Source: Shigella phage SH7
Length of the DNA: 64,000 nt
Strand: one strand, 5' to 3'
Sequence record: KX828711
Positions 3,308 to 61,702 of the stretch are shown here, one piece after another. The translations under genes were made by a program, and so were the position numbers. The notes under the pieces were generated by a model, which was not told the origin of the DNA, did no database searches, and saw nothing but the letters and a program-made list of their open reading frames with translations. The stretch's first letter is position 1, and every line of letters starts with the position of its first letter.

Positions 3308-3590
3308 TCATATCCTCAATTTGCGATCTAGTAGTCTTCCAAAGAATACTGATGAGTTCATCGTTATATGGCTGTTTTAGAATATCCCGACTTTTCTTGA
3401 TAGCATATTCGTATTGAGCAAAATTATTATTTTCAGCTGCGATCTGAGCGTGCTTATAAAGACGATTCAGTTCGCGTTTGTTTTTAGACAATAACTTATT
3501 TGCTTTTCTTTCTGCTTCAAGACGGTTCTTTTCTTCAATAGAAGAAATAAGCTTTTCCACTTCATCATTAATTTCGGGTTTATCAGTCAT
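3273..3590 (-). CDS. hypothetical protein, predicted coiled coil
   Basis: 105 aa, charged helical sequence; tightly packed downstream of gene 55. Confidence 0.55.
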   Translation of the reverse strand: MTDKPEINDEVEKLISSIEEKNRLEAERKANKLLSKNKRELNRLYKHAQIAAENNNFAQYEYAIKKSRDILKQPYNDELISILWKTTRSQIEDMIDAYTRKIQAS

Positions 3591-3591
3591 A

Positions 3592-3810
3592 TTATTTCTC
3601 TAATATAAAATAAAAATCATCATCTGTTAAATGATACCGATAATTTAATTCTACACCATTAGATTTAAAAGCGGTATCATACGGATTTTCTGGATCAATA
3701 TCAATGTCAAGAGCTAAAACTTCCCTGAGATACATTTTAAGTAAATAGGGAATAGCTTCAACTTCAGGTATTTCTTCCAAGAATCCGGAGAGGTTAATCG
3801 TTAGCCTCAT
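3592..3810 (-). CDS. hypothetical small protein
   Basis: 72-aa ORF overlapping the gene 55 stop. Confidence 0.5.
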
Positions 3811-4351
3811 ATAAAAAATCCAAACTAGGAGAATCGTCTACAACACTTTTCTTTTCAGCCCCCGGTGTTCTATAGGTTGATTCTTCGTAATGCGTCATTT
3901 TATCGTAGATGTCTTGAATAAAAGTTTCATCTACTAACGCAACCATATCGTCGTCACGACTGTCATAGACATTGTGAACGAAGTAACTATATTTCTTTGC
4001 AACTTCCTTACGTTCTTTTTTAATACGTTGGACGAATGCATTAAAACAAGCTTGAGTTATATACGCATGTGGGTTTTTATATTTCGTTTCATCAAAATTA
4101 TGAAGCCCCTTAATAGAAGCTTCTATACCATCTGCAATCATTTCTTGTTTCCAAGACTGGGTGTATCCTGAAAAGTTGAAACGTTTAGATAAGCCTTCTG
4201 CAATAAGCATAATGGCTAATCCGATAGTATCATTTTGACGAACTACTTTATTTGGGTCTTTATTATTTGCTAATTCTGTTTTCCAATCAATAATAGCTTG
4301 TAAAAGCTCTTTATTGTTTACGTAATTATATTTAGGCTTAGTTTCTGACAT
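3794..4351 (-). CDS. 55: late-transcription sigma factor gp55
   Basis: 185 aa from [20 protein letters not shown] (third Met of the ORF); matches T4 gp55 in size and sequence as recalled. Confidence 0.9.
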
Positions 4352-26505: not shown

Positions 26506-26784
26506 TTATTCTTTAAATCTAATCAATTTATTCATAGACTTTGAAACTTCGGCACGAACCTCATGTAGATTTTTGAGCTGTTCAAGACGCTGCGTATAGT
26601 AAGCAATTTCATCTTCTTCGAGACAGTCCTGCGAATCTTCTTTAAGATAACGTGCATAGTCCTGGAAAGCGTTACGGATTACTTCCTGGAAGTCATCAAG
26701 ACTTTGAATTTTCTTAGGAGCAGCAGATACACGACGAGGGGCAGTATAATACTCATAACCAAACCCTGCGCTTAATTGAGCCAT
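26506..26784 (-). CDS. hypothetical protein
   Basis: 92 aa from the Met whose ATG overlaps the upstream stop (TAATG). Confidence 0.5.
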
Positions 26785-27050
26785 TAGTATTTTTCCTCTG
26801 GTTGGAACACTGCACGACAAGCCCACATACTGGCTTCTTTGAGTTTCGTTTTAGCAATAGTTAACTGATCGAGGCTTTCAGCATAATTCTTCGCGAATTC
26901 ACAGTCTTCACAATTATCTAGTGCTTCCCAGAATTCATCGTATAAAGCGTCAAAGATAAGTCCTAAACGAACTTCAGCGTCTTTGATAGCATTCACTTTA
27001 CCGATTTTCTCTTCAGTATGTGGCTTATAACCCTTAATGTCTTCAATCAT
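26784..27050 (-). CDS. small acidic helical protein; possible Vs.4/Acb2-position protein
   Basis: 88 aa from the Met with GAGGAAG RBS; second gene upstream of regB, where T4 vs.4 lies; assignment by synteny only. Confidence 0.4.
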
Positions 27051-27264
27051 ATTTAACTTCCTCACCAGTACATAAATCATATTCAACTAAACGAATAGGT
27101 TCATGAATGCCATATCCCTGAACAGAAATTTCTGTCGTAGGATAAATTCCACTAATATCACCCATATTCCACGCTTCATTAAATTGCTGTTCGCCTGAAT
27201 TACTAAACCATTCTGCGAAAGCATTTAGCACATCTTTAGAACCTTCAATAATTATCTTTGCCAT
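27043..27264 (-). CDS. hypothetical small protein
   Basis: 73-aa ORF; start overlaps the upstream stop. Confidence 0.5.
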   Translation of the reverse strand: MAKIIIEGSKDVLNAFAEWFSNSGEQQFNEAWNMGDISGIYPTTEISVQGYGIHEPIRLVEYDLCTGEEVKYD

Positions 27265-27626
27265 TACAGACTCTCAGTAAAGGTACGAGCGATAACGTCG
27301 CGCTGCTGTTCCGGAGTCAGAGAGTTAAAGCGAACTGCATAACCGGATACACGGATGGTCAGCTGCGGATATTTTTCCGGATGCTTAACTGCATCTTCCA
27401 GAGTTTCACGACGCAGAACGTTAACGTTCAGGTGTTGACCACCTTCAATTTTAACTGTAGGTTGTGTTTCAATTTCAATTTCACGGGCGTGCAAACCATA
27501 GAAAATTTCTGGGTCTACAAAAGAGTCCTCTTTAAAGGTTTTAGAGACAATAATTCGCGCTTGAATACCATCTTCAAAATAAATAGTACCTTTATGCGTG
27601 CCTTCAAGAATTTGATATGCTTTCAT
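27264..27626 (-). CDS. autonomous glycyl-radical cofactor (GrcA/YfiD-like spare-part protein)
   Basis: 120 aa; C-terminal glycyl-radical fingerprint [17 protein letters not shown]. Confidence 0.8.
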
Positions 27627-27633
27627 ATAAACC

Positions 27634-27963
27634 TCAATTAGAAAATAAATTTATCCAAGATTGTTCTTTAATTAAAAATGGCTCAGAATCATATGCCATT
27701 AAACTTTGCGTAATTAATCCTTTAAAAGGTCCATCAATAAATTCCATGGTAAAATATGGAATTTTATTCATTAGCCGTGCATTAGGAGCCGTGCACAAAA
27801 CTCTGCATCCTTTGAATACGCCTTTTTGTAATTTGTATTGCTTAGGATAAAATTCACTTAAAATGTTATTTTTTGCCAAAATTTCAAAATGATTCACCAA
27901 TTTATTTTTAATAGTTTTTGGTGAAAAATAAAGATATTCAAAAAGTTGCGCATCTGTCATCAT
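27634..27963 (-). CDS. hypothetical protein
   Basis: Start at internal Met pair with ATGA overlap to the upstream stop. Confidence 0.5.
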
Positions 27964-28499
27964 TGCATTCCGATTACGAAAAACTGTGGACGAGTAATAC
28001 CACCAATACAACATTTAATATTACAGCAGCAGTGTACAGTGTCAATATGGACGCTATAAATCTTATCCATATCAGGAGATTTGACAGGCTCATCAATTAT
28101 ATACAAAATTCGCGAAAGCGATAAACCTCTGAACTTGCTTCCTTTATTACCAATAAAACTGCGCACAGAATCAGTAAATAAACGAAAACGTATATCATCA
28201 TTAGAATAACGCGAAAATTCCTTTTTAATGTTATTTGCAGAAATTTTAGCGTAAGCTGAAGTATTAGAAAGAACAATAACTGTTCCGCCATCATACAGCC
28301 AATTAGCAGCAAAGTTAGTCACAGCAATTGATTTACCGGATTGACGTCCACCATCTAGTCGAAGTGTGCAATACTGTTTAAGTAATTCTTCAAATGGCGG
28401 AATATATTCGTTTTTACAAATTTCTTCTACTCTAGCATCAGAATGGTGTGTAAAAGCATTCATCAGGGATAGATAAGGACCAGTTAAAAATGTTCTCAT
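27960..28499 (-). CDS. small P-loop NTPase with Cys-rich C-terminus
   Basis: 179 aa; Walker A GGRQSGKS, Walker B ILYIIDEP, C-terminal HCCCNIKCC. Confidence 0.55.
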   Translation of the reverse strand: MRTFLTGPYLSLMNAFTHHSDARVEEICKNEYIPPFEELLKQYCTLRLDGGRQSGKSIAVTNFAANWLYDGGTVIVLSNTSAYAKISANNIKKEFSRYSNDDIRFRLFTDSVRSFIGNKGSKFRGLSLSRILYIIDEPVKSPDMDKIYSVHIDTVHCCCNIKCCIGGITRPQFFVIGMQ

Positions 28500-28639
28500 T
28501 TCTTCTCTCTAAGTTTGGGCCATTCCGTGGCGCATGAATTGTCCATTTCTGTATTTACCCATTACCGCGCTTGGGCTCGACCTTATTACAGGTTGGCGGG
28601 AATCCCTCATAGAATCATGAGGTCCAGGTTGTTCCCATA

Positions 28640-29113
28640 TTATTTGAACGATTTAACGTACTGAATAGAACCTTTACTATTCACAAAGGCAATTTTACCA
28701 TTTTTGTTATACATAGTAGCAGTACGTTGATAGCCATAAGTTTGTTTACCAGATTGATAACCAACTAATGCGAAATTATCTTCACCCATTTTATTCTGTT
28801 TAGCGCGAATGCGTTCATGACCATGTGCCATAAGAACCTTAGCATCACCGGTTGCAATGGATCGACGAGTTTTTTCATCTTCAACTGTATTAACAAAGTC
28901 GTCAAATGAATCAAATTTAGCATGAGATTTATTATACAGTTTTCCATCTACTGCATAATTATATCCCTGTACATCCATCTCAACTTCTGTACCATCATCC
29001 AGTACAGCAGTGATTTTCTGTCCTTTTTTAAATTTCAAAAGATCAGTAAAAGATTCAGCAATAATTTGAGAATTAATAGCTGCTTCAGTAATAAATTCTT
29101 GATAGGTTTTCAT
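28640..29113 (-). CDS. internal head protein (capsid-targeting-sequence protein), IP locus
   Basis: 157 aa; N-terminal MKTYQEFITEA matches the T4 IP capsid-targeting sequence with an LxE protease site. Confidence 0.7.
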   Translation of the reverse strand: MKTYQEFITEAAINSQIIAESFTDLLKFKKGQKITAVLDDGTEVEMDVQGYNYAVDGKLYNKSHAKFDSFDDFVNTVEDEKTRRSIATGDAKVLMAHGHERIRAKQNKMGEDNFALVGYQSGKQTYGYQRTATMYNKNGKIAFVNSKGSIQYVKSFK

Positions 29114-29129
29114 GTGTTTCCTTTAATTT

Positions 29130-29447
29130 TTATTCTTTAGGGAAGTTTTTAGAATATGCATCATAAAGCTTATTTCCAATACGGCGGAAAACTCTAGCCG
29201 CAAAACGATTTTCTGGGTTTTTAATCATGATTTGCATCATATAAGTACCCGCGTCAGAAAGAGCTTCTTCATAGTACCCGTTAATTTCTTTAAGAGTCCT
29301 ACGTTTACCACCAGGACCATCAACAGTGATTTTCCATTTACCTGTAGAAGTGCGACTTGGCGGCTCAACTTGTTCAATCCAGATATAACCGCCTTCTACA
29401 CGTTGTCCTGCAGCAGATTCTGCAATAAATTCTTGATAGGTTTTCAT
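29130..29447 (-). CDS. internal head protein (capsid-targeting-sequence protein), IP locus
   Basis: 105 aa; N-terminal MKTYQEFIAES capsid-targeting sequence; between the IP gene and lysozyme e. Confidence 0.7.
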   Translation of the reverse strand: MKTYQEFIAESAAGQRVEGGYIWIEQVEPPSRTSTGKWKITVDGPGGKRRTLKEINGYYEEALSDAGTYMMQIMIKNPENRFAARVFRRIGNKLYDAYSKNFPKE

Positions 29448-29501
29448 GTGTTTCCTTTAAATATTTTAATTAGTAATTTATCTATTCAAGTAACTGTGAA
29501 T

Positions 29502-29531
29502 ATACTATCACAATTCCAAGAGAAAGTAAAC
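29502..29531 (-). promoter_or_regulatory. early-type promoter (GTTTAC..TAGTAT)
   Basis: Reverse complement GTTTAC..18 nt..TAGTAT upstream of the IP genes. Confidence 0.5.
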
Positions 29532-29535
29532 AGCT

Positions 29536-35335: not shown

Positions 35336-35411
35336 TGGTCGAGGCAGTAGGGATCGAACCTACGACCTAGGACTTAGAAGGTCCTTGCTCTTCCTTCTGA
35401 GCTATGCCCCG
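35336..35411 (-). tRNA. tRNA-Arg (anticodon UCU)
   Basis: Hand-folded cloverleaf: 7-bp acceptor, anticodon loop CUUCUAA, T-loop TTCGATC, encoded CCA. Confidence 0.8.
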
Positions 35412-35415
35412 TAAT

Positions 35416-35491
35416 TGGGGTGACCGATGGGAGTCGAACCCATGACTACGAGAATCACAATCTCGAGTTCTACCAACTGAACTACGGCCAC
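35416..35491 (-). tRNA. tRNA-His (anticodon GUG), tentative
   Basis: Cloverleaf with anticodon loop UUGUGAU and discriminator C73, but no encoded G-1. Confidence 0.55.
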
Positions 35492-35605
35492 ATTAATACC
35501 TACTCCAACAATCAAGATGTCTTCACACGAAATTAAGAGAAGAGTGATCAGTTCAACCCCGATAATCGCGTCAAGTAGATATTAATGTGACAGTTGTCAC
35601 AAATT

Positions 35606-35680
35606 TGGCGGACGTGATAGGATTCGAACCTATAACCAATCGCTTAACAGGCGATCGCTCTGCCATTGAGCTACACATCC
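35606..35680 (-). tRNA. tRNA-Asn (anticodon GUU)
   Basis: Cloverleaf, anticodon loop CUGUUAA, T-loop TTCGAAT, discriminator G, CCA encoded. Confidence 0.65.
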
Positions 35681-35684
35681 AAAT

Positions 35685-35771
35685 TGGTGGGGAGTGATGG
35701 AGTCGAACCACCCGAGTCGCAATGACAATGGATTTACAGTCCACACCGCTACCTCTACGGGATAACTCCCC
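35685..35771 (-). tRNA. tRNA-Tyr (anticodon GUA), long variable arm
   Basis: 87 nt; perfect 7-bp acceptor, anticodon loop CUGUAAA, extra arm, discriminator A, CCA. Confidence 0.6.
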
Positions 35772-35784
35772 TTAATTCTTAATT

Positions 35785-35859
35785 TGGTGGCCCTAGGTGG
35801 AATTGAACCACCATCTGGCGATTATGAGTCGCTTGCTTGAACCTTCCAGCTACAGGGCC
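35785..35859 (-). tRNA. tRNA with CAU anticodon (Ile2-type or Met)
   Basis: Cloverleaf, anticodon loop CUCAUAA; occupies the position of T4 tRNA-Ile. Confidence 0.7.
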
Positions 35860-35860
35860 T

Positions 35861-35936
35861 TGGTGCTGATTGACGGAATCGAACCGCCGACCTTCTCATT
35901 ACAAGTGAGTTGCTCTACCTACTGAGCTAAATCAGC
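35861..35936 (-). tRNA. tRNA-Thr (anticodon UGU)
   Basis: Matches my recollection of T4 tRNA-Thr (GCTGATTTAGCTCAGTAGG...); anticodon loop CUUGUAA. Confidence 0.85.
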
Positions 35937-35941
35937 AAAAC

Positions 35942-36031
35942 TGGCGGAGGCAATAGGATTTGAACCTATGAGTCGCCGGAGCGACTGCCGGTTTTCAAGA
36001 CCGGTGCATTAAACCACTCTGCCACGCCTCC
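35942..36031 (-). tRNA. tRNA-Ser (anticodon UGA), long variable arm
   Basis: 90 nt; anticodon loop CUUGAAA, discriminator G, CCA encoded. Confidence 0.8.
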
Positions 36032-36033
36032 AG

Positions 36034-36107
36034 TCTCCATACAAGGATTTGAACCTTGGACCTCCTGATCCCAAATCAGGCGCTCTACCAAACTGAGCTA
36101 CACGGAG
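36034..36107 (-). tRNA. tRNA-Pro (anticodon UGG), CCA not encoded
   Basis: Anticodon loop UUUGGGA; 3 end abuts tRNA-Ser with a 2-nt spacer. Confidence 0.8.
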
Positions 36108-36117
36108 TAAATTAAAT

Positions 36118-36191
<74 letters not shown>

Positions 36192-36196
36192 AAATT

Positions 36197-36283
36197 TGGT
36201 GCGAGAAGTGGGACTCGAACCCACAAGGAAATCATTCCGCAGCATTTTAAGTGCTGTGCCTTTACCAATTTGACCATTCTCGC
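36197..36283 (-). tRNA. tRNA-Leu (anticodon UAA), long variable arm
   Basis: 87 nt; anticodon loop CUUAAAA; CCA encoded. Confidence 0.8.
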
Positions 36284-36284
36284 G

Positions 36285-36357
36285 CTGGGAATAAAGGACT
36301 CGAACCTTTGCATCCTGGAATCAAAATCCAGTGCCTTACCAACTTGGCTAATTCCCA
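36285..36357 (-). tRNA. tRNA-Gln (anticodon UUG), CCA not encoded
   Basis: Anticodon loop UUUUGAU; 1-nt spacer to tRNA-Leu. Confidence 0.8.

Positions 36358-58561: not shown

Positions 58562-61702
<3,141 letters not shown>

Follow-up and report, generated by a model that had tools for sequence, protein, structure and literature searches.

A stand-alone terminase-like ATPase, Vs.8, and a candidate structured RNA upstream of its gene in a T4-like phage

Evans et al. (Nat Commun 2026;17:10151, PMC13601566) screened T4 proteins against EcAvs2 with AlphaFold 3. [quoted passage not shown] T4 Vs.8 was toxic when combined with the STAND sensor EcAvs2 in co-expression (PMC13601566), a phenotype reported for the T4 allele, which is 98% identical to the protein described here. 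Two other non-terminase activators of Avs2, Ksap1 and Ksap2, come from Dhillonvirus and Stephanstirmvirinae, not from T4-like phages, and are compared here by description (PMC13601566). Like Vs.8 they are small, have a restricted taxonomic range and a terminase-ATPase-like beta-sheet core, and trigger Avs2 in co-expression; unlike them, Vs.8 has true sequence homology to terminase and shares its Walker A and B motifs (PMC13601566). The same authors suggested that such activators, other than terminase, may serve in anti-defence and have come to be recognised by Avs2 (PMC13601566).

Very few phage proteins are known that a bacterial pattern-recognition receptor takes for terminase, and Vs.8 is among them; what it does for the phage itself is a question explicitly raised in 2026. 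Vs.8, its likeness to terminase and one of its phenotypes have already been published, and the homology was reproduced independently here. This report describes the vs.8 locus of a Shigella phage, weighs possible roles for the protein, and describes a conserved element upstream of the gene.

The vs.8 locus and its neighbors

The window is the whole stretch of DNA analyzed, 64,000 nucleotides of Shigella phage SH7 (KX828711), and belongs to a T4-like phage (Tequatrovirus). Around vs.8, a 2.9-kb stretch matches 839 phage records, with a top identity of 97.7%. Two overlapping genes are central to the locus:

27960–28499, (−) strand: vs.8 CDS, ATG start, 179 aa, stand-alone terminase-like (TerL N-terminal) ATPase core
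27634–27963, (−) strand: vs.7 CDS, 109 aa (sequence reading, PP01 annotation, phrog_2049)

The 179-aa open reading frame of the initial annotation was confirmed, with its ATG start, and is the ortholog of bacteriophage T4 vs.8. The annotated order in phage PP01 is regB, vs.3, vs.4, vs.5, vs.6, vs.7, vs.8, ipIV, ip10, e, nudE, in which the open reading frame at 27960–28499 corresponds to vs.8. Its product is identical to Vs.8 of phage T4T at 175 of 179 residues (98%) and matches PHROG 1488, a family labeled "unknown function", with an E value of 2.6e-79 (residues 3–179 on profile positions 2–177 of 177). The locus shares with T4 the downstream neighbors vs.7, vs.6 and on to regB, the upstream internal-protein (IP) genes and e, the protein motifs and the conserved upstream element. 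The two proteins differ by four substitutions, two of them in a Cys-rich loop (HCCCNIKCC in the window, HYCCNSKCC in T4), and the allele is no new kind of protein.

Gene order around vs.8, with the e/denV/IP cluster on one side and vs.7 through regB on the other, is kept in 35 T4-like loci. Across these loci the position of vs.8 is fixed, at the head of a block running from vs.8 and vs.7 to vs.3, and denV and the internal-protein genes shift or are absent. The order is ipII, denV, vs.8, vs.7 in T4T and e, denV, ip10, ipIV, vs.8 in phage JK38. In T4, denV lies immediately upstream of vs.8; in the window, ipIV takes that place. A tblastn search with DenV over the whole 64-kb window found no denV (best E value 3.1). 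The interval between e and vs.8 (28500–29535) holds just two internal-protein genes, ip10-like at 29130–29447 and ipIV-like at 28640–29113, and the products of both begin with the capsid-targeting motif MKTYQEF.

The stop codon of vs.8 overlaps the vs.7 start codon (ATGA at 27960–27963), a sign of translational coupling between the two genes. Despite this overlap, constraint on vs.7 is much weaker than on vs.8. By tblastn, vs.7 was detected in 26 of 34 T4-like loci with downstream DNA and was undetectable in the other 8. Database homologs of vs.7 (P0069–P0077) are often truncated or frameshifted, at 60–82 aa against 109 aa in the window. A fold search with Vs.7 returned no match. The next gene, vs.6 (27264–27626, (−) strand), encodes a 120-aa GrcA/YfiD-like autonomous glycyl-radical cofactor (Pfam Gly_radical, E value 2.2e-18).

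Open reading frames downstream of vs.6, at 26506–27086 on the (−) strand, are orthologs of vs.4 and vs.3 by synteny and length with PP01. We take Vs.4 to be the cGAMP sponge Acb2 (a cyclic-dinucleotide sponge). T4 Vs.4 is reportedly a subject of a 2023 Nature paper on cGAS conjugation (PMC10097602). On the same synteny and length comparison, the vs.3 product would be TadIV-1, an N7-cADPR sponge. With these orthologs downstream of vs.6, vs.8 heads a block that carries two proven anti-defence genes encoding immune-signal sponges.

Relationship of Vs.8 to the large terminase

The conserved segments of Vs.8 and the terminase gene with which they were compared are:

28329–28352, (−) strand: Walker A / P-loop, G50-G-R-Q-S-G-K-S57, of the terminase type G/S-R-Q-x-G-K-T/S (regex and translation; family-invariant, gp17-aligned)
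28086–28109, (−) strand: Walker B, I131-L-Y-I-I-D-E-P138, with an invariant R124-G125 before it (family alignment; gp17-aligned)
27963–27992, (−) strand: conserved C-terminal strand, R170-P-Q-F-F-V-I-G-M-Q179, with F173, G177 and Q179 invariant
59867–61699, (+) strand: putative gp17 large terminase subunit, 610 aa, paralog of Vs.8 (open reading frame list, hhalign)

[quoted passage not shown] In the 20-sequence Vs.8 alignment, which reaches down to 40% identity, the invariant residues are D49-G-G-R-Q-S-G-K56, R113, R124-G125, L132, I134, I135, E137-P138, K146, Y148, F173, G177 and Q179, and D136 is nearly invariant. By its position, the G-x-Q of the last strand would correspond to helicase motif III or the terminase C-motif.

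Among 5.8 billion proteins, a word-indexed search picked up 27 Vs.8 homologs, 93% to 40% identical, and those with a named source are all from T4-like phages. When 1.84 billion representatives were searched exhaustively by profile, just 50 clusters turned up, nearly all of them stand-alone proteins of 150–185 aa. The family is restricted to phages, with no member detectable in 185,579 bacterial and archaeal genomes.

The open reading frame at 59867–61699 is presumably gp17, judging by its length, its position in the T4 gene order and its match to known gp17 motifs. Alignment of a 40-member Vs.8 profile to this open reading frame with hhalign gave a probability of 89.5% and an E value of 2e-6, spanning Vs.8 residues 32–146 and gp17 residues 142–265 of 610. 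The Vs.8 P-loop G-R-Q-S-G-K-S is aligned with S-R-Q-L-G-K-T of gp17 (residues 161–167), and the Vs.8 segment F-R-G-L-S-L-S-R-I-L-Y-I-I-D-E-P is likewise paired with a gp17 segment. The window Vs.8 matches PHROG 2 (terminase large subunit) with an E value of 1.3e-5, and 24 of the 40 family members match this profile, the best at 3.9e-8. Matches to Pfam Terminase_6N were found in 17 of 40 members, all under the curated cutoff; the best member has an E value of 1.4e-4, and the window Vs.8 scores 12.7 bits against a gathering cutoff of 22. Together, the PHROG 2 and Terminase_6N matches, the hhalign result and the paired motifs argue that Vs.8 is a paralog of the terminase ATPase core.

An AlphaFold model of the window Vs.8 (pLDDT 82.6) has a RecA-like ASCE fold. 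This predicted alpha/beta fold, with a central parallel sheet, matches solved ASCE ATPases, including helicase RecA1 and terminase ATPase domains. Small structural relatives of similar size, all uncharacterised, are found in other large myophages, including Pseudomonas jumbo phages. A direct PDB sequence search with Vs.8 gave insignificant matches only, and searches of NCBIfam and PADLOC gave nothing meaningful. The P-loop NTPase call of the initial annotation is right.

Vs.8 differs from a complete terminase in architecture and in genomic setting. The homologous ATPase core, the terminase-type P-loop and the R-G motif before Walker B are present, but Vs.8 is a single domain of 179 aa, against 610 aa for gp17, and lacks subdomain II and the RNase-H-like nuclease domain. 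It therefore fails as a terminase proper and could not package DNA alone. The gene is not beside the small terminase or portal genes, and the gp17 open reading frame is about 31 kb away; vs.8 sits among accessory genes, with IP and vs genes as neighbors, not in the packaging module.

Constraint on the catalytic residues is strict within the Vs.8 clade and decays in distant branches. Four distant family members (P0056, P0058, P0060, P0065) have G-H-[ST] for G-K-[ST] in Walker A and D-[VC] for D-E in Walker B, and still have the P-loop R-[QR]. From these substitutions, the four are probably non-catalytic pseudo-ATPases. As the Walker A Lys and the Walker B Glu are gone in some distant branches, hydrolysis is not kept family-wide.

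Possible roles of Vs.8

Vs.8 is a free-standing paralog of the gp17/TerL N-terminal ATPase core, a RecA-like ASCE P-loop domain. It retains the full nucleotide-handling set, namely the P-loop G-R-Q-S-G-K-S, the R-G motif, the Walker B D-E and the G-M-Q of the final strand. Vs.8 likely binds and probably hydrolyses ATP, and is probably an ATP-loaded protein-binding module that resembles the terminase ATPase. Its role would be accessory, most likely in host interaction or counter-defence rather than in packaging. This combined reading, of a terminase-ATPase paralog serving as an ATP-loaded lookalike module in an accessory, host-interaction role, is the one we consider probable, with reasonable but far from full confidence.

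The main rival casts Vs.8 as a functional motor or remodeller of the terminase or helicase kind, which would form oligomers and hydrolyse ATP on DNA, RNA or nucleoprotein. Such a motor could act in replication, recombination, transcript handling or packaging initiation, and its recognition by Avs2 would be incidental to shared ancestry. Within the Vs.8 clade, invariance of the Walker A Lys, the Walker B Asp-Glu, R52, Q53, R113 and R124 is consistent with a motor, as is the fold match to both helicase RecA1 and terminase ATPase domains. Single-domain ASCE ATPases also usually complete their active site in oligomers. However, the 179 residues hold no nucleic-acid-binding domain and no second RecA domain. 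Helicases of superfamily 2 (DEAD-box, Mfd, RIG-I-like) need two tandem RecA domains and motifs Ia–VI, whereas Vs.8 has one RecA domain only; against helicase families it gave no significant sequence match, with sub-threshold generic AAA matches only. Distant branches in which the Walker A Lys (GK to GH) and the Walker B Glu are gone persist as genes, only a narrow phage lineage carries the family, and vs.8 lies in an accessory block of the anti-defence type, not among replication or packaging genes. A motor acting on nucleic acid is therefore an unlikely, if serious, alternative.

A more elaborate form of the host-interaction reading makes Vs.8 a terminase-ATPase mimic, made before the real terminase. 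It would serve counter-defence by titrating, desensitising or misdirecting terminase-sensing immunity (Avs1–3, Upx and others), with the Cys-rich loop as the arms-race interface and expression governed by the upstream structured RNA. Taken as a whole, this scheme is speculative and rather improbable.

The Cys-rich segment had been described as the end of the protein and as a possible metal-binding or lipidation-like cluster. It is located as follows:

27999–28034, (−) strand: Cys-rich loop, HCCCNIKCCIGG, a hypervariable, low-confidence surface loop between helix 144–158 and the last strand

Vs.8 has cysteines at residues 28, 44, 157, 158, 159, 163 and 164. The five Cys in 8 residues are real and far beyond chance, with 7e-5 such windows expected at the Cys frequency of 0.98% in long open reading frames of the window. 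The cluster is not the end of the protein: HCCCNIKCCIGG spans residues 156–167, and the 12 residues that follow (168–179), among the best conserved of the family, form the last beta-strand.

A functional Zn, Fe-S or lipidation site that defines the protein would account for five Cys and one His within 9 residues, a compositionally extreme stretch. Of the 10 closest among the 20 aligned sequences, 8 have an H/Y-C-C-x3-4-C pattern (P0004 and P0007 lack the distal Cys), which leaves room for a lineage-specific Zn knuckle. Across homologs, however, the loop (152–171) is 16–21 residues long and the would-be ligands are not conserved: it has 0–5 Cys, the window allele being the maximum, with none in the Yersinia-phage clade and 1–2 in more distant clades. 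T4 already differs there (HYCCNSKCC). The family varies most here: of all 12-residue windows in the alignment, the one at Vs.8 157–170 has the highest variability, its entropy averaging 2.38 bits vs 0.12 at the P-loop. Residues 161–167, between helix 144–158 and strand 172–176, are the sole segment of at least 3 residues with pLDDT below 50 in the AlphaFold model. The Vs.8 sequence has no CaaX box, N-terminal signal peptide or lipobox, and the Cys lie 16–23 residues from the C-terminus, so that no lipidation signal accompanies them. S-palmitoylation of Cys runs is not known as a modification in bacteria or phages. A defining metal or lipid site is thus very improbable; the stretch is a lineage-specific, fast-changing surface loop outside the core mechanism and is not worth chasing as a metal site.

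The last alternative, that Vs.8 is a RegB-related endoribonuclease or a functional replacement of the missing denV repair enzyme, draws on product names in GenBank and on the lack of denV in the window, and can be set aside with near certainty, since BLASTP of Vs.8 against RegB found no similarity (E = 19), the predicted fold is a P-loop ATPase, and vs.8 and denV sit side by side in T4 and most T4-like loci, so that one is no substitute for the other. The initial annotation had placed the gene where denV would be expected; vs.8 is instead the usual neighbor of denV in T4, where both coexist. With no similarity between Vs.8 and RegB, the following label is a propagated annotation error:

Shigella phage JK38 (L002) 935–1800, and proteins P0004, P0006 and P0070: "endoribonuclease (RegB)" as the name of vs.7/vs.8 orthologs in several GenBank records

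A candidate structured RNA upstream of vs.8

A gap of 140 nt separates the ipIV stop codon (28640) from the start of vs.8; its GC content is 43%, against 35% in the window. The gap holds a conserved element that was also located in other loci:

28514–28645, (−) strand: GC-rich structured element of about 130 nt, candidate structured RNA (covariance model, covariation counts)
L004–L035 and L037, about 3800–3985; L038, 1467–1561; L040, about 555–640; L041, about 575–650: the element in other loci

The element is conserved at the nucleotide level even in loci whose Vs.8 proteins are just 35–45% identical. It is sometimes called as an N-terminal extension of Vs.8. The T4T record (L039, HM137666, 831–1481), whose vs.8 CDS covers the element, gives a 216-aa product with a 37-aa N-terminal extension, and a 195-aa product represents a cluster of 1051 sequences. 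Other extended annotations in which the extension translates the conserved element are:

Proteins P0001, P0010, P0027, P0033 and P0035: N-terminally extended Vs.8 annotation

In the window the extension is out of frame, and it shows no conservation as protein; the true Vs.8 start is therefore the ATG of MRTFLTGPYL, and the N-terminally extended CDS annotations are errors. A coding role for the element was rejected because variants differ by non-triplet indels and the frame is closed in the window.

The proposed structure has a P1+PB hairpin, a three-way junction (P2/P3/P4) and a 3′ hairpin presenting GGA. A covariance model was built from this hand-drawn structure, with six helices and 24 base pairs. 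The window has a single hit to this model (113.7 bits, E value 1e-30), and of 34 other loci 33 have a strong one. Two loci have two tandem copies (L012, 3712–3972; L023, 3719–3978). In four loci (L017, L018, L020 and L031, about 3420–3590) the element is about 430 nt farther upstream, as if a gene had been inserted, and a degenerate second copy is present. The tandem duplication and the inserted stretches suggest that the element marks a boundary of gene-cassette exchange.

Covariation was counted in an alignment fitted to the model, and the counts are biased toward it: 88.6% of cells pair, vs 25–47% with partners slid; 14 pairs change on both sides, vs 2–6 slid and 7.3 ± 1.3 shuffled (0/500); and the covariation score is 0.177, vs 0.02–0.05. 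An unbiased MAFFT/RNAalifold run on five divergent lineages recovered P1, with compensatory changes, and P3. The same run proposes a junction pairing unlike the hand-drawn one, and the junction register is provisional. No consistent structure emerged from MFE folding of single sequences or from an initial RNAalifold run, whose alignment was ragged. The strand that would be folded is the vs.8-sense one, to judge from a U-G pair that 27 sequences keep.

By BLASTN, 1007 phage records contain the element. Three other, unrelated phages share its junction core (ACCU-GUAAUA-AGGU, a short hairpin, GGUAAU) at about 90% identity: slur16 (Vequintavirus; Vequintavirinae, a different subfamily), Vibrio phage F88 (classified as "Viruses" only) and Pseudomonas phage PsgM04F (Caudoviricetes only). 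The flanking helices are fully re-coded in the three (GGGG/CCCC, CACAU/AUGUG; GUACC/GGUAC, CUUAC/GUAAG; GAAUGU/ACAUUC). The GGA-loop 3′ hairpin is specific to T4-like phages, and its loop resembles those that CsrA binds.

Several identities were considered and rejected. Genome contigs of bacteria and archaea gave 0 matches, which rules out a host or prophage origin, and no family in Rfam 15 matches the element. It is not the T4 oriE, which lies near repEA/repEB. A conserved sigma-70 promoter was ruled out because 28500–28640 on the (−) strand has no promoter-like site and because the distance from a TTTACA-like box to the blocks downstream of it differs between variants by over 20 nt.

The element is a candidate for a previously undescribed structured RNA. 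It may function as a non-coding RNA that is stable, as a leader controlling RNA processing or translation of the vs.8–vs.3 block, or as a decoy that binds protein. As a structured element with no Rfam family that fronts a block with two proven immune-signal sponges, it may be a more original lead than Vs.8 itself.

The slur16 and PsgM04F copies are located within or next to clusters of tRNA genes; a search around the tRNA cluster of the window for a second copy found none. The window cluster, at 35336–36357 on the (−) strand, has 11 tRNA genes (Arg, His, Asn, Tyr, Met/CAT, Thr, Ser, Pro, Gly, Leu and Gln) and is larger than the T4 set of 8.
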